Assembly (NCBI GenBank): GCA_965248195.1
Contig: CBDFIQ010000002.1
Span: forward strand, 864,001-928,000
DNA length: 64,000 nucleotides
Direction: 5' to 3'
From: Longimicrobiales bacterium
Lineage (GTDB): Bacteria; Gemmatimonadota; Gemmatimonadetes; Longimicrobiales; Gaopeijiaceae
The stretch's first letter is position 1; each line of letters opens with the position of its first letter. The position numbers and the translations under genes are program-made. Positions 326 to 12,583 of the stretch are shown here, piece by piece. The notes beneath the pieces are model-generated. The model worked only from the letters and a program-made list of their open reading frames with translations. It did no database searches and had not been told where the DNA came from.

Positions 326-709
326 ACCACCTGACCTCCTCGGGTAGGGTATGCGCAAGAGAGTAGTCCAGTGTTGGCCCCTCGGGCAAGCTACTTGCGC
401 TCGGCTTCGCCGTGGATCGTCGCCGCGGGACGGTGACGATAGCTGCCGGGCTGCCCCGGACGTAAATCTCCCTGTTTTTGCCTCGTGGTCGTACATTTGT
501 GCATGCACCGTAACGAGCACGATTCCTCCTCAGGCAGCCCTATGAGCGACAAATTTCCGATGAAACAGCACAGAGGATCTCGACCGCAGATGTGCGACGT
601 CGACGAGATGGTGTTGGTGCCGGGGTCCACCTGACAGGAGAAAATCGACCGCCTCGGGTGGGCGGCAGGGATCGCGTTCGTCTCTTACGGCTTACGCATT
701 GGGATCCGG

Positions 710-1468
710 GTGAGTAGCCCGGAGATCATGGATCGGATTGAAGGAGTGCTTCCACCGTATGTCAGGCCCGCTCGCGGCCCCCGCGTCGGTGGTTTGTATT
801 CGCTGATAGCCAGCGGAACCAAGGTCGGCTCCAGCCGTCGCCGTTTCAACATTCTTTATGCGGGCGCGCGACGGCTGACACGAACGAAGGACACGGACGA
901 GGCACTGGATAAACTCGAGGGGCACCTGCAGCTATACGTCGCGGAACATGCCCGCCGCAGGGTGTTCGTCCACGCCGGCGTCGTGGGCTGGCGTGGCAGG
1001 GCCATCGTCATCCCGGGGCGCACGATGAGCGGCAAGTCGACTCTGGTCAAGGCATTGGTCGAGGCGGGAGCGACGTACTACTCAGATGAATACGCCGTTC
1101 TTGATAAGCATGGTCGGGTGCATCCCTATGCGAAGGCTCTGTCGATGCGGCAGAACGGGGGTGGACGCCCGAAGAAGGTCCTTCCGGAAGCTTTGGGCGG
1201 AAAAACCGGTGTCAGACCGCTCTCGGTAGGTTTGGTCGTCGCGACCCACTACCAGCCCGATGCTCGCTGGCGACCGCGTCAGCTTTCGCCTGGGCGGGCG
1301 GTGATGGAGCTCTTGGCCCACACCGTCCCCGCCAGACGCGATCCGGAGCGGGTCTTCGCAACGCTGCCTTCGGCCACGGCCGACGCGATGGTGCTAAAGG
1401 GGGCGCGTGGTGAGGCCACCGAAATCGCCGAAGTCCTCTTGGCCCGGTTAACGGAACGGGCGGGCTGA
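710..1468 (+). CDS. HPr kinase-related P-loop kinase (true start uncertain; frame open from 635)
   Basis: HAGVV...GRTMSGKSTL Walker A and YYSDEYAVL motif, typical of HprK-related kinases. Confidence 0.75.
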   Translation: MSSPEIMDRIEGVLPPYVRPARGPRVGGLYSLIASGTKVGSSRRRFNILYAGARRLTRTKDTDEALDKLEGHLQLYVAEHARRRVFVHAGVVGWRGRAIVIPGRTMSGKSTLVKALVEAGATYYSDEYAVLDKHGRVHPYAKALSMRQNGGGRPKKVLPEALGGKTGVRPLSVGLVVATHYQPDARWRPRQLSPGRAVMELLAHTVPARRDPERVFATLPSATADAMVLKGARGEATEIAEVLLARLTERAG

Positions 1469-1504: not shown

Positions 1505-2880
1505 GGTCAAGTCCCGATTTGTGTGTAAAAGCGGAGGAAGCTCCTCGCCTTCGGCTAGGCTGCTTGGGCGACCTCCTGTTTCTGGAGGAGTGAGAGGTCG
1601 AGGTAACGCCGGTCGCCCCAGACGTGTGTGGTCCTGAGTGCGACGGCCGTGATGAGCCTGAGGGCGCTGGCCCGGTCCGGGAAGGCGCCGGCGGCCTTGA
1701 TCCTGCGTTTGATCTCGCCGTGCAGCCGCTCGAGGCTGTTGGTGGTACGCAGCCGGGGCCAGTGCGCCTCGGGGAACGCGTAGAACTGCGTCGCTGCCCC
1801 GAAGCCCCGCTCCAGGACCTCCACGGCCTCGGGCAGCTCCTTCTTCCAGCGTGCGCCGAACTCGCCCAGGAGCTTCTTCGCCTCGGCGAGTCCGGATGTC
1901 TGGAAGATCACCGAGACCTCACGCGCCACGCGCTTGCGTAGGCGGTGGGGGACCCTCGCCCCCACATTACGCTGCAGATGGACCGTACACCTCTGACGGC
2001 GTGCCTCGGGCAGGAAGCGGCGGACCGCAGCTGCCAGGCCTGCGTGCTCATCGGCGATCACGAGCTCGACACCGCCGAGGCCGCGGTCCTGGAGTTGCTC
2101 GAGGAGCTCCGACCAGCTCTGCTGCGACTCCTCAGCGCCCAGCGTGACGGCCAGGAGCCGTCGGTGACCCTCAGGGCCCACTGCATACGCCACGAGCGCA
2201 CTCACGTTCTCGACTTTGCGGGCCCAGCGGGCGTCCAAGAACGTGGCGTCCAGGTACAGATAGGGGTGAGGCCCCTCGATCGGCGCACGGCGCAGCCCTT
2301 CCACGGCCTCGTCGAGCCGTTTTGCCACACGACTCACCGTCGAGCGCCCAACACGCTCGCCCATCAGCGCCTCGGTGACGTCGCCCATCTTGCGCTGTGA
2401 CACGCCGCTCACATACGCCTCGACCATCATCTCGTCGAGCTCGGGGCTCCTGCGCTGGTAGCGGCCGATCACGTCGGCCGGCGAACCGTTGTCCCGGCTC
2501 CGGGGCATGGCGACCTCGATCTGCCCCAGGCTCGTCAGCAGCCGCCTCAGGTATGTGCCGTTCCTATGGTCCTTCCGGCTTCCCACCCGCTCGAAGCGGC
2601 GTGCACCTACCATGGCCTTCAGCTCCTCTTCCAGCACCATCTCGAGCGTCAGCCGGATCGCGCCTTGAAACAGCTCGCGCAAATCATCGCGTAGCTCGTC
2701 TTGCGTGGCCCGACCGATCTCCACAATCTCTTGCATCGGAAGCTCCTCTCCGGTTCCGAGCCTGCTCTGCAGACCCGGACTCCCGGGTTCATGTGACAGT
2801 GAACAACAACAGAGGAGCTTCCGTTTTTCTTTCCCTCCTGTCCAGCTTATCCGCTTTTACACAAATCTAGGGACACTACC
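1505..2880 (-). mobile_element. IS256-family insertion sequence, copy 1 (1376 bp)
   Basis: Imperfect terminal IRs (GGTCAAGTCCCGATTTGTGTGTAAAAGCGGA vs GGTAGTGTCCCTAGATTTGTGTAAAAGCGGA); 9-bp TSD TAAAGTGGT at 1496-1504 and 2881-2889. Confidence 0.95.
1555..2736 (-). CDS. IS256-family transposase
   Basis: RNGTYLRRLLTSLGQIEVAMPRSR, YLDATF, QRCTVH and RTTNSLERLHGEIKRR motifs. Confidence 0.95.
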   Translation of the reverse strand: MQEIVEIGRATQDELRDDLRELFQGAIRLTLEMVLEEELKAMVGARRFERVGSRKDHRNGTYLRRLLTSLGQIEVAMPRSRDNGSPADVIGRYQRRSPELDEMMVEAYVSGVSQRKMGDVTEALMGERVGRSTVSRVAKRLDEAVEGLRRAPIEGPHPYLYLDATFLDARWARKVENVSALVAYAVGPEGHRRLLAVTLGAEESQQSWSELLEQLQDRGLGGVELVIADEHAGLAAAVRRFLPEARRQRCTVHLQRNVGARVPHRLRKRVAREVSVIFQTSGLAEAKKLLGEFGARWKKELPEAVEVLERGFGAATQFYAFPEAHWPRLRTTNSLERLHGEIKRRIKAAGAFPDRASALRLITAVALRTTHVWGDRRYLDLSLLQKQEVAQAA

Positions 2881-2955: not shown

Positions 2956-3501
2956 ATGGAAACGACGAACGCCCTGATGCCTCGTGCGAGGCAAGACGAG
3001 CTGGTTGTCGAACAACTTCCCGACGAAACGTTGGTCTACGACTTGAAGCGCCATAAAGCACATTGCCTAAACCGCACGTCAGCACTCGCCTGGTCACGCT
3101 GCGATGGGCGAACGACTGTGGCCGAGGTAGCCGCGCTGCTGGAGGGGGAATTGAAAATTCCGGCAGACGAGGCAGTGGTGTGGATGGCGCTGGACCGCCT
3201 AGGAAGGGCGCACCTGCTGAAGGACCGGGTGACCTTGCCGGCAGATAGGACCCGGTACTCGCGGCGCGAGGTGCTCCGAACCTTGCGACGGGTTGCTGGG
3301 ATCTCGCTCCTCCTGCCCGTGATCGAATCAATCGTGTCGCCACTCGCGGCGGCACAACAATCTAATTGTGTCGATGTGGACACGTGCGAAAAAGTTATGG
3401 TACCTCCTCAGTGTTACAACCAGATGATCTGTGGGTCTTCGGACGAATGTTGTGGGCCCGAAGGGAACCCGCCCGAGTGTAAGAAACACTCTTGTATCTA
3501 A
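2956..3501 (+). CDS. PqqD/RRE-domain protein fused to a twin-arginine-like leader and a Cys-rich C-terminal peptide
   Basis: DETLVYDLKRHKAHCLNRTSALAWSRCDGRTTVAEV is PqqD-like; SRREVL...LLLPVIESIVSPLAAA; 8 Cys in the last 45 aa; GAGGT RBS. Confidence 0.8.
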   Translation: METTNALMPRARQDELVVEQLPDETLVYDLKRHKAHCLNRTSALAWSRCDGRTTVAEVAALLEGELKIPADEAVVWMALDRLGRAHLLKDRVTLPADRTRYSRREVLRTLRRVAGISLLLPVIESIVSPLAAAQQSNCVDVDTCEKVMVPPQCYNQMICGSSDECCGPEGNPPECKKHSCI

Positions 3502-3585: not shown

Positions 3586-4398
3586 GGGCCTGTTAACACT
3601 ATCTGAGGGCTTCGACGATGAGCGCGAAGTGGATGAAGGCGGTAAACATCACGTCGAGCTTGTCAAAGCGGGAGAAGATTCTTCTGAAGCCTTTGAGTCG
3701 CCGAAATAACCGCTCTATTTCGTTACGACGGCGATACATGACTCGGTCATACTGCCACGGGTTAACACGGCCCTGCTTGGGTGGCACGACCGGCGTAAAC
3801 CCCAGCTCCAACACCAATTGCCGTGTTTCGCCCCCCTCGTACGCCCGGTCCATGATCATGGACACTGTGGAATGTACCGGCTTCAACGTGCGTAGCAGTT
3901 CCCGTCCTTCCGGCGCGTCGTGCTTGTGGCCTGGCGATAGCGAGAAGGTTATCGCGGTTCGAGCATCTGCGGCAACCATATGAATCTTGGTGGTCCAGCC
4001 TCCACGCGACTTGCCGATGGCCTGCGGGCCGTTTTTTTTAGAGCGCCGGTGCCATCAGGGTGCACCTTGACGATGGTACTGTCGATCGACAGAGCTTGGA
4101 TCTTGATCCGGATAATTTGCTCGTCTTGCAGGGCCGCAAAGACACGATCCAGCACACCTGCCCTGGCCCAGCGATTCATTCGGGTGTAGATCGTATGCCA
4201 GTTACCGAAACGCGGAGGCAACCCCCGCCATTTGCAGCCGTGTTCGGCCACATACAGGATCGCGTTAAGCACTTCGAGATTGGAGATGCTCACATTGCCG
4301 CGCTGATGCGGAAAGCAAGCCTCTATCCGACGATATTGGGACTCTGTGATTTTCATAGCCCCAATATACTACAAATTGCCCTTAGTGTTAACAGACCC
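3586..4398 (-). mobile_element. IS5-family (IS427-like) insertion sequence
   Basis: 16-bp IRs GGGCCTGTTAACACTA / GGGTCTGTTAACACTA; CTAG at both ends (TA or CTAG duplication). Confidence 0.92.
3599..4356 (-). CDS. IS5-family transposase, orfA and orfB joined by a -1 frameshift at the A8 run (4032-4039)
   Basis: orfA GCKWRGLPPRFGNWHTIY...SIDSTIVKVH; the -1 frame continues KNGPQAIGKSRGGWTTKIHM...MDRAY...RNEIERLF. Confidence 0.9.
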
Positions 4399-4409
4399 TA
4401 GTAGCAGCA

Positions 4410-5498
4410 GTGCTCGCCGGTGCGTGGCGCCCCACCCCGCCGCCGCTTTCTCTTTCACCCACTGGCCTGGCCGAGATCACGCCGCTGCTTCTCAGGACGG
4501 GATCAGCGGGTCTGGGCTGGTGGCGTGTGCGGTCGTCCGACCTACGGACCAGCTCGGCTGCCCTCCAGCTTCAGCAGGCGTACCGCATTTACATCCTCAA
4601 GGCTGGCGCCCAGGAGCGCCGAATCGTACAGGCGATCACGCTCCTTCGGTCGGCGGGTGTGGAGCCGCTGCTGGTCAAGGGCTGGGCCATCGCTCGACTG
4701 TACCCCGAACGCGGACTGCGACCATACGGAGACATCGACCTGTGTGTTCGGCCGGAACAGTATGCAGTCGCGCTGGCTGTGCTCGCCCCGGAGCCAGAGA
4801 GGGCCAACGTCGATTTGCACGAGGGTTTGAGCCAGCTCCACCGCCCTTCGCTGGATGATGTCTACGAGCGTTCCCAACTGGTACCGCTGTCTGATGTCGA
4901 CGTGCGGATATTGGGACCCGAAGATCATCTCCGCTACATGTGCATACACATGTTGCAGCATGGCGCGCACCGCGCCTTGTGGCTGTGCGACATCGCCGTC
5001 GTGCTGGAATCTCTGCCCGAGGATTTCGACTGGGAGTATTTGCTGCGGGGAGACCGGCGGCACGCGGATTGGGTGGCATCCACCGTGGGTCTGGCACACC
5101 AGCTCCTCGGGGCCCGCCTGGACGGTATTCCCCTGGCTGAGAGGACTAGACACCTGCCCAAATGGCTCCTTCCCTCGGTGCTCAACCAGTGGTCGATGGA
5201 GGAGCATTACATGGACGCAGGGTCGATCGCGTACTCCTTCCGGCGCCCGGCCCAGCTGCTAAAAGCGCTCCGCCTCCGTTGGCCCAATCCGATCCAGGCC
5301 ACGATACGAGTCGGAGGGCCGTTCAATGAACTGCCCAGATGGCCGTTTCAACTGTGGGAGTGTGTATTGAGGACGGTGCATTTCCTTACCCAGGTGCCGA
5401 CGCTGGTCCGAGAGAGATCCTTCCGCCCCGTGAGGGGGTCGGGAACAGGTCCGATAGCTACAGGGGGGAAAAAAAGGGAGGAGGGGATCAAGGAGTAG
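4410..5498 (+). CDS. Nucleotidyltransferase family protein (NTP_transf_5-like); 5' end probably cut by the IS5 element
   Basis: LLVKGWAIARLYPERGLRPYGDIDLCV, VDLH, H..QHG, WLCDIA motifs. Confidence 0.8.
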   Translation: MLAGAWRPTPPPLSLSPTGLAEITPLLLRTGSAGLGWWRVRSSDLRTSSAALQLQQAYRIYILKAGAQERRIVQAITLLRSAGVEPLLVKGWAIARLYPERGLRPYGDIDLCVRPEQYAVALAVLAPEPERANVDLHEGLSQLHRPSLDDVYERSQLVPLSDVDVRILGPEDHLRYMCIHMLQHGAHRALWLCDIAVVLESLPEDFDWEYLLRGDRRHADWVASTVGLAHQLLGARLDGIPLAERTRHLPKWLLPSVLNQWSMEEHYMDAGSIAYSFRRPAQLLKALRLRWPNPIQATIRVGGPFNELPRWPFQLWECVLRTVHFLTQVPTLVRERSFRPVRGSGTGPIATGGKKREEGIKE

Positions 5499-11356: not shown

Positions 11357-12583
11357 ATGCTTAAAGCACGCTACTACCAGAACGACGGCTCGGAGGGGAA
11401 GGCTCAGGCTCTCCCCGAATGGCTTTTCGACGGCGTCGTCCACGAGGACGTCCTGCACCAGGTGATCAAGGTCTACCTGTTGAATCAACGGCAGGGTACT
11501 GCTTCGGCCAAGTCCCGGGGCCAGGTCAAGGGCGGGGGCCGCAAGCCGTGGAGGCAGAAGGGGACCGGGCGGGCCCGCGCAGGAACGATCCGCGCCTCGC
11601 AATTTGCGGGGGGCGGGGTCGCGTTTCCGCCCATTCCGCATTCGTGGAGGCAGCGCGTCCCTCGAAAGGTCCGGGCCCTGGCTCGGCGATCCGCGTTTAA
11701 TTCCCGGGCTCAGGGAGACCGGGTAGTCCTGGTGGACCCGCTCGAGTTCGACACTCCCAAGACCAAGAAACTCGTGGAGTTGGTTGGAAAGCTCGGAGCC
11801 GAGGGAAAGGTGCTCCTCCTCACGGATGGCGGGAAGGAAAACGTCTATCTCTCGTCACGAAACCTCCCGGGCGTGGTGGTGCGGCCCTTTGGCGAGGAGT
11901 CCGCCTACGACATCCTCTGGGCCAACCTTCTCGTCATCGAGAAGACGGCGCTCGAGAGTGCCGAACCGTCCGAAACACACAGGGCCGCTATGGAATCGCG
12001 GTCCCGAGGTGAACCCGCGGTGAGGGCGAGGGAAAGGGCTGTCGAGGAGGCGCAGGCGGAGGGAAGGAAGGCAAGGGTGGGGCATGGGACGAAGTCCAGG
12101 AGCGTTACGGCGGTGAAGGCCAAGGCTGAAGTTCAGCCGGAAAGGAAAGCCGCAGCCAAGGCTAAACCGAAGTCCAAGGCCAAGGTCGAATCCGAAGCCT
12201 CGCCGGGGACGGCCAAGACGAAGGTGGCGCCCAAGGCCCAGGCCAAACCCAAGGCTGAGATCAAAGCCAAAGCCACGACCAAGCCCGAAGCCAAGGGGGT
12301 GGCCAAGGCAGAGGCGGCACCCAAGAAGAAGGCTGCACCCAAGAAGAAGGCTGCACCCAAGAAGAAGGCTGCACCGAAATCCTCGGGGGCTTCCAGGAGC
12401 GAGCTGGATCTTTCGGCCATCAAGCTGCCCAAGGTAGGTGACATGCCCGGGTTCCTCGCTCAGTTCGACACCGTATCCGATATCAAGGCCCTTATGGTGC
12501 GTGATTCACGCAAGACGGCCCAGGCCCACTACGAAGCGCGCTTGACGGAGCTTTCAGGTGCGACCAAGGGCAAGAAGGACTGA
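11357..12583 (+). CDS. rplD: 50S ribosomal protein L4 with a ~200-aa C-terminal extension
   Basis: RKPWRQKGTGRARAG core; Ala/Lys/Pro-rich tail and a small C-terminal domain. Confidence 0.97.
   Translation: MLKARYYQNDGSEGKAQALPEWLFDGVVHEDVLHQVIKVYLLNQRQGTASAKSRGQVKGGGRKPWRQKGTGRARAGTIRASQFAGGGVAFPPIPHSWRQRVPRKVRALARRSAFNSRAQGDRVVLVDPLEFDTPKTKKLVELVGKLGAEGKVLLLTDGGKENVYLSSRNLPGVVVRPFGEESAYDILWANLLVIEKTALESAEPSETHRAAMESRSRGEPAVRARERAVEEAQAEGRKARVGHGTKSRSVTAVKAKAEVQPERKAAAKAKPKSKAKVESEASPGTAKTKVAPKAQAKPKAEIKAKATTKPEAKGVAKAEAAPKKKAAPKKKAAPKKKAAPKSSGASRSELDLSAIKLPKVGDMPGFLAQFDTVSDIKALMVRDSRKTAQAHYEARLTELSGATKGKKD
12314..12379 (+). repeat. 18-bp tandem repeat (AAPKKK x3.7) in the rplD tail
   Basis: gctgcacccaagaagaag units. 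Confidence 0.9.

Follow-up and report, generated by a model that had tools for sequence, protein, structure and literature searches.

An apparently undescribed precursor design joining an RRE, an internal twin-arginine-like leader and a hypervariable cysteine-rich core in one polypeptide

Background

An RRE is generally regarded as acting on a precursor that is a protein of its own, and genome mining by RRE accordingly seeks a short ORF nearby. Precursors joined to a folded domain are known from the borosin methyltransferase-precursor fusions and from the long leaders of the Nif11/NHLP type; there the fused part is an enzyme or an enzyme-derived leader, whereas the gene described here joins an RRE and an export signal.

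In the LPP system of Bacillota (lppA-K-B-S-D-N), a kinase polyphosphorylates Ser3 of a core that is released by a signal-peptidase-like enzyme, and deletion of the NTP transferase gene lppN was without visible effect (PMC13381572). The loci studied here resemble LPP in having an RRE, an HprK-like kinase and an NTP transferase, a conserved leader ahead of a variable core with Ser at its start, signal-peptidase-type processing (predicted here) and a polysaccharide-locus context; LPP, however, uses a discrete RRE, a YxxP leader, its own SpI peptidase and an MsbA-type exporter (PMC13381572), whereas here the RRE is fused, the leader carries RR, an aliphatic residue stands in place of Tyr, the core is Cys-rich and no dedicated peptidase or exporter was seen in 31 loci. 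Because of the fused RRE, the lack of YxxP and the lack of a dedicated peptidase or exporter, we regard these loci as LPP-like in their working but outside LPP. The words 'Tat' and 'twin-arginine' do not occur in the main text of the LPP paper (PMC13381572).

Tailoring of paeninodin and pseudomycoidin employs the same kinase (K) and nucleotidyltransferase (N) families, acting on a Ser of the precursor, and in pseudomycoidin the nucleotidyltransferase adds a hexose to the phosphate (PMC8498205). Both systems share the lasso-B1-type RRE fold with the present precursor; its cassette, unlike theirs, has no lasso cyclase or B2 peptidase, and its Ser stands at the start of the core rather than at the end (PMC8498205).

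Tat signals follow the general motif Z-R-R-x-hydrophobic-hydrophobic and fall into five classes, of which IV and V are internal and described as uncleaved; a signal both internal and cleaved is absent from the five classes as laid out in that 2026 review (PMC13673990). In class V (FecR) the signal follows a folded domain and in class IV (actinobacterial Rieske proteins) it lies inside the chain, both as in the present precursor, but these classes are uncleaved, whereas the precursor family has a conserved A-x-A (PMC13673990, PMC7317946). TorD-type REMPs are chaperones that bind the hydrophobic part of a Tat signal, like the role proposed below for the RRE, albeit as separate proteins of another fold that serve cofactor enzymes, whereas here the RRE is fused in cis (PMC6708511).

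One survey notes that 21% of PF05402 proteins exceed the length of a discrete RRE while carrying no further annotation (PMC12710340). No description of an RRE-leader-core fusion was found in the literature covered, chiefly the main text of open papers; fused members might be listed in the cluster tables that supplement PMC13381572, PMC12710340 or PMC7470986.

Layout of the precursor gene

The window, that is, the whole analysed stretch of 64,000 nucleotides from a Longimicrobiales bacterium (GCA_965248195.1, contig CBDFIQ010000002.1), contains the following features (window coordinates; residues are those of the precursor).

638..1468 (+): HprK-like kinase (TIGR04352, E 8.7e-16, 57.8 bits against a cut-off of 200; HAG, Walker A and SDE motifs present)
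1505..2880 (-): IS256 between the kinase and the precursor gene (NF033543; 9-bp target duplication)
2956..3501 (+): RRE-leader-core precursor gene, intact ORF of 181 aa
2980..3219 (+): RRE (PqqD-like) domain, residues 9-88, fold span 7-94 (PF05402 and TbiB1 fold match)
3220..3258 (+): linker, residues 89-101, variable in sequence and nearly fixed in length
3259..3276 (+): twin-arginine motif S102-R-R-E-V-L107 (RR conservation, TatP pattern)
3307..3342 (+): putative RRE recognition sequence L118-x-x-P121-V-I-E-S-I-V-S-P129, overlapping the hydrophobic region
3346..3363 (+): A-x-A signal-peptidase-type site (residues 131-133) and conserved Ser136, the likely phosphorylation site by analogy with LPP Ser3 (PMC13381572)
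3367..3498 (+): hypervariable 8-Cys core, residues 138-181
3587..4397 (-): IS5 in the 5' end of the nucleotidyltransferase frame (NF033580; CTAG duplicated)
4398..5498 (+): NTP_transf_5 nucleotidyltransferase (PF14907, 100.4 bits)

The precursor gene was the sole PqqD-family match in the whole genome (Pfam PF05402, residues 24-73, 31.4 bits versus a cut-off of 23.4). An earlier note, made from the letters of the window, had described this layout, and it was confirmed: the PqqD-like domain, S-R-R-E-V-L at residue 102 (3259), LPVIESI (residues 120-126), AAA (131-133) followed by QQS (134-136), and Cys at 138, 144, 153, 159, 165, 166, 175 and 180, spaced C-x5-C-x8-C-x5-C-x5-CC-x8-C-x4-C. The distance from the last LL of the RRE to RR was 14 residues in 86 of 110 genes.

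GAGGT lies five bases ahead of the ATG at 2956. A nested in-frame start in the linker would instead yield an ordinary N-terminal Tat precursor and make the fusion merely apparent, and in this gene AAGGA does precede a GTG at V92 by four bases. However, of 110 genes, 17 had a linker start codon with a Shine-Dalgarno-like site, compared with 92 of 440 control windows placed within the RRE, and the nested start was rejected on this comparison; a Shine-Dalgarno-like start was present at the true start in 87 of the 110, and a homologue search with residues 96-181, albeit a weak one, recovered no shorter protein, all of which leaves this explanation very improbable.

The search for longer homologues returned a single frameshift-like record of 500 aa. 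In three RNA runs the IS elements and scraps of the enzyme genes were covered and no RNA contig lay over the precursor gene; contigs from one sequencing run of unrecorded kind joined across both IS sites. A promoter scan at the precursor locus was uninformative.

Size, spread and conservation of the family

Homologues of the precursor numbered 686 at the 90% level. A profile search produced 1,912 clusters (50% identity) at E up to 1e-30 and 5,758 at E up to 1e-10, the weaker of which likely include discrete RREs. Named records came mostly from Gemmatimonadota and Acidobacteriota, with single Methylomirabilota, Nitrospinota, Binatia and delta-proteobacterial members, and distribution was patchy: a set of 300 other genomes from the phylum yielded near-full-length matches (E < 1e-25) in 12. 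Atlas matches to the precursor were to unnamed or PqqD clusters.

Motifs were counted in the 150 best 50%-cluster representatives; these were ranked by a profile that included the Cys columns, so Cys-rich members are over-represented among them, and members with Cys-free tails exist. R103 was present in 150/150, R104 in 149/150 and S/T102 in 140/150, followed by P121 (142/150), V/I123, S/T125 and P129 (148/150 each), A134 (127/150) and S/T136 (138/150). The earlier note had named non-conservation of the RR motif and hydrophobic segment as the finding that would speak against its proposal; both are conserved in these 150 representatives. Among 119 close homologues, identity to this protein was highest in the leader (88%) and the RRE (85%), lower in the linker (63%) and lowest at the non-Cys positions of the core (32%). 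At the level of sequence, a conserved leader with a hypervariable core is the pattern seen in peptide precursors.

Long passenger domains were seen in three family members (P0266, P0244 and P0235); the C-terminus of P0266 is weakly intein/Hint-like (E 0.0017), and the passengers of P0244 and P0235 had no Pfam match.

RRE fold and placement of the leader

The RRE was predicted to fold as three strands followed by three helices, in line with PF05402 scoring over its cut-off. A model built from 150 rows (mean pLDDT 87, pTM 0.71) placed a helix at residues 103-111 and a strand at 123-127; in a 38-row model residues 116-135 fell under pLDDT 50 and the leader was not resolved. Whole-model fold searches likened the RRE to lasso B1 proteins (TbiB1, 5v1v: Z 9.1, rmsd 2.2, 86 residues) and superposed model residues 4-130 on chain residues 135-1020 of NisB with bound leader (4wd9_A: Z 7.4, rmsd 4.7, 103 residues). 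Since the 4wd9_A chain has 1,006 residues versus 996 in another NisB entry, we infer that its high residue numbers are the appended leader. The model would lay the precursor leader in the same groove as the NisB leader. Sequence searches against solved structures gave weak matches, to PqqD (E 0.04) and, at profile positions 98-140, to the N-terminal signal region of an arsenite oxidase Rieske subunit (E 0.39).

Covariation was analysed in 371 sequences (effective number 214). The N39-P121 coupling ranked 11th, R40-I123, S42-I123 and A35-S128 were also high, and RRE windows 34-47 scored best against leader residues 120-129 (3.6, median 2.26), a weak signal in that diagonal scores were about 1.1, competing registers scored alike and the shuffle control ignores kinship. 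In LppB, N33 fixes the leader Pro and Y27-N33 pairs with the leader strand (PMC13381572); we infer that the N39-P121 coupling matches LppB N33-P(-13), N39 being equated with N33 from the L-N motif. Model, superposition and covariation agree with a putative leader strand along strand 3 of the RRE. A complex prediction of RRE 1-92 with leader 100-140 scored 0.27, below the 0.32 mark, and counts neither for nor against such binding.

It had been proposed that the RRE binds its own leader in cis, with LPVIESI pairing as a β-strand in the groove. The strand at 123-127 overlaps this motif, and the superposition up to residue 130 and the strand-3 covariation are compatible with cis binding, which is thereby suggested by model and alignment; placement in the groove comes through the NisB superposition, in which residue pairs are not displayed.

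The leader as an internal Tat-type signal

S-R-R-E-V-L fits the general Tat motif, and the TatP pattern (PMC6085387) was found at this place in 136/150 representatives and elsewhere upstream in only 10/150. Nearly all representatives (149/150) have an uncharged run of at least 13 residues after RR; in this protein, unlike in most of the family, R111, R112 and E124 interrupt the hydrophobic stretch, and its 15-residue uncharged run comes only after E124, as in 65 of 120 close homologues. When all ORFs of the genome were scored with a leader profile, 21 others were recovered, of which 16 looked by eye like N-terminal signals of the twin-arginine type. A TatC gene is present in the genome, and Tat export of the precursor is a prediction. 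None of the Pfam and NCBIfam Tat models exceeded its cut-off, which counts against the Tat reading, as do the charges in this protein's hydrophobic stretch and, described below, the high hydrophobicity of the leader and its near-total lack of the Tat Phe. RR stands at residue 84 or later in 150/150 representatives, and class I needs RR within 35 residues. A strict A-x-A was present in 92/150 and small-x-A/G in 122/150.

A Tat lipoprotein (class II) reading was rejected, as a lipobox preceded the first Cys in 2 of 85.

The precursor could alternatively be an uncleaved FecR-like class V Tat substrate, with the RRE inside, the signal as anchor and the Cys domain outside as a sensor or surface tag. 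Class V offers the precedent of a folded domain ahead of an internal Tat signal (PMC13673990), the hydrophobic region of the leader is more hydrophobic (median 2.23) than that of the 22 N-terminal Tat candidates of the genome (1.6), and exopolysaccharide genes occur in 27/78 loci. The small-x-A/G site followed by a fixed Ser/Thr argues against such an anchor, as do the two conserved prolines and, in this protein, E124, which would make a poor one; we hold this alternative to be quite unlikely.

The proposal of an internal Tat-like leader is thus borne out as far as RR and hydrophobic conservation and the class IV and V precedents reach, but these precedents are uncleaved, and export and cleavage of the precursor are predictions. 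We put forward, as a serious but tentative possibility, a sixth Tat class with an internal cleaved signal, in which a folded RRE serves as n-region and grips its own hydrophobic region.

RR might also have nothing to do with Tat and mark a recognition site for the kinase, the nucleotidyltransferase or the RRE surface, the product leaving by another exit or staying inside and binding metal. Where the textbook Tat motif has Phe, the family nearly always has another residue (Phe in 3/150 representatives), and covariation linked the helix at 103-116 with the RRE surface (S42-R111, T41-V113, R81-I116), both in favour of this explanation, on which split relatives and core composition bear further.

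Split relatives with a discrete RRE

We examined 34 loci around discrete RREs, two of which are duplicates. In 16 of the 34, a small ORF with RRxF[LIVM] and YxxPx[VIL] was present, with a Met 3-7 residues ahead of RR in 15/16 and an RR-to-Pro spacing of 16, which is also the commonest spacing of fused leaders (63/142); these split relatives are all from one phylum and mutually kin. Homologues with a textbook RRxFL so close to a Met argue against RR as a mere recognition mark. The 16 loci include a kinase in 14, a nucleotidyltransferase in 6 and a methyltransferase in 16, and the precursor cores are without Cys.

In L038-L040, L131, L132, L135, L136 and L152-L160, a discrete RRE, an arginine-methyltransferase-like gene, a kinase and a Tat-YxxP precursor occur together, the cores being Cys-free and His/Pro-rich. 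Two other loci, L137:3502-4077 (-) and L139:5884-6639 (+), have a discrete RRE next to a precursor of the RR...WSVP type whose core is Cys-rich, and adjoin a chain-length/tyrosine-kinase gene. With respect to the HPr-rel-A cassette (TIGR04352/TIGR04353), the RRE of a split relative passes TIGR04353 (48.6 bits, cut-off 35), whereas the fused RRE gave no match and the window kinase matches TIGR04352 far below cut-off.

The helix-3 Asp that binds Tyr in LppB is present in 15/17 of the discrete RREs from such split loci and replaced by V/L/I/M/A in 136/150 fused ones, while a Tyr three residues ahead of Pro was found in 0/142 fused leaders; as far as these alignments go, replacement of the Asp matches loss of the Tyr. 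In a quick tree (87 columns), 44 sampled fused RREs formed one branch (SH-aLRT 93), which would fit a single fusion event, and the Asp/Tyr change therefore counts as one event.

The cysteine-rich core

Eight Cys were present in 110/120 close homologues. Across the family the number was even in 133/138 cores (6 in 52, 8 in 41 and 10 in 22; even counts of 12 and 14 were also seen), and His made up 0.9% of core residues. Even Cys counts, low His and the rarity of a lipobox favour disulfides and hence an oxidising compartment. CxxC, present in 44/150 cores, is the remaining point for the non-Tat explanation of RR; against it stand the even counts of 6-14, the scarcity of His and a linkage to MauE-thioredoxin genes, which occur in 15/78 loci, this genome having one elsewhere. 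Together with the split relatives, these observations make that explanation unlikely.

The cystine-knot (knottin) framework is C-C-CC-C-C. It was found in 25/150 family members, and the core of this protein reads C-C-C-C-CC-C-C. Of the earlier suggestion of a four-disulfide knottin-like or metal-binding peptide, disulfides are thus the favoured part and metal less so, and the knottin framework applies to part of the family. Whole-model fold searches, which barely test the core, found no match for it.

Elsewhere in this genome (G000, C1:1022536-1023954, -), the MauE-thioredoxin gene precedes an ORF of 105 aa that has an S-R-R motif and a tail rich in Cys; it is a second, RRE-free candidate for an exported disulfide peptide.

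Genomic neighbourhood

Across 78 loci, the HprK-like kinase was found in 67, the NTP_transf_5 nucleotidyltransferase in 68, both in 64 and neither in 7; in loci of at least 12 kb both were present in 45/50. In relatives the kinase, precursor and nucleotidyltransferase genes stand side by side. Given these flanking genes, a modified peptide is the likely product, a point absent from the earlier note; the 7 loci lacking both enzymes count against modification of Ser136. A further survey covered 149 of 161 neighbouring ORFs of at least 140 aa in 31 loci (the 12 left out were mostly very long or housekeeping) and found no signal peptidase, lasso B2 peptidase, radical SAM enzyme or MsbA-type exporter. 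One glutaminase-bearing asparagine-synthase gene was present in the 31 loci, which do not qualify as lasso peptide clusters with a macrolactam cyclase and B2 peptidase.

Export might proceed as proposed while the enzymes act elsewhere (on an envelope sugar), the RRE works in trans, or the RRE is cut off before Tat. The envelope-polysaccharide context noted above, the occurrence of more than one fused gene in 13/78 loci and the LPP study, in which LppN deletion changed nothing, are compatible with such arrangements. The Ser/Thr at a fixed place in 138/150 representatives, mirroring LppA Ser3, and a fixed linker length that suits a cis tether argue the other way, and no conserved cleavage motif was found in the linker; we therefore consider these arrangements unlikely, though of some weight.

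In the window, the kinase ATG found in 8/11 relatives' copies is missing and the first in-frame start is a GTG at 710; the 5' end of the nucleotidyltransferase is about 19 codons shorter than in most relatives, with a GTG at 4410. Given these downstream starts, both enzymes may survive in a shortened form. While the precursor gene itself is undamaged here, its modifying genes may be impaired by the two IS elements and the lost kinase start, damage that the earlier note does not mention. IS256 has more than 100 near-identical copies in the genome and IS5 about 14, a recent expansion.

Several side observations were made in these neighbourhoods. A 24-codon ORF (window 560-634, +) ends directly ahead of the kinase start and is open in 5/5 aligned sequences, one with a 15-base in-frame insertion; it is possibly a coupling leader or a gene remnant. 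A neighbour of 383-456 aa with weak similarity to FliB lysine methylase and CxxCxxCC proteins (L003:6266-7417, L005:10672-11823, L011:5962-7332, L020:2544-3707) is present in 11/78 loci, was not found in this genome and is a possible further modifying enzyme. In L003, L004, L054 and the window (5661 onward) the cassette lies just ahead of rpsL-rpsG-fusA-tuf, in some cases after rpoC. A 408-aa ORF with a long Ala/Lys/Pro-rich C-terminal tail (window 11357-12583, +) stands at what we take to be the place of ribosomal protein L4.

Discussion

We consider the precursor design to be real and conserved, apparently not described before, and part of a pathway of a known kind; its mechanism is proposed here. 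A RiPP-type precursor that recognises itself, is phosphorylated on Ser136, leaves through Tat and is cleaved by signal peptidase seems to us a moderately probable account.

On this account the RRE would fold and bind the leader strand P121-V127 of its own chain, as in the model. The bound RRE might then, by analogy, offer Ser136, which lies shortly beyond the leader, to the HprK-like kinase encoded next to it, and the nucleotidyltransferase may add a sugar to the phosphate, as the LPP, paeninodin and pseudomycoidin systems suggest. The internal twin-arginine signal would engage Tat so that the core crosses the membrane and the RRE stays inside. Since the strand that would bind the RRE lies within the hydrophobic region, the RRE may restrain export until it lets go, in a TorD-like and admittedly speculative manner. 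A housekeeping signal peptidase would cut after A-x-A, and the released core of 47-50 residues would form four disulfides outside the cytoplasm, presumably aided in some lineages by the linked MauE-thioredoxin.

The family probably makes secreted, phosphate-modified, disulfide-bonded peptides, and its rapid divergence and the multiplication of its genes suggest that the product acts at the surface or in conflict. Were the sixth-class reading true, a single polypeptide would serve as its own substrate and chaperone and would also gate export, throughout a huge family of phosphorylated or phosphoglycosylated disulfide peptides. The fused family would explain part of the over-long, otherwise unannotated PF05402 proteins and supply a substrate for orphan kinase-RRE-nucleotidyltransferase cassettes. 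It would also bring cleaved internal signals within the Tat rules and give access to natural disulfide-rich peptide scaffolds, in about 1,900 sequence clusters, from little-cultured phyla.
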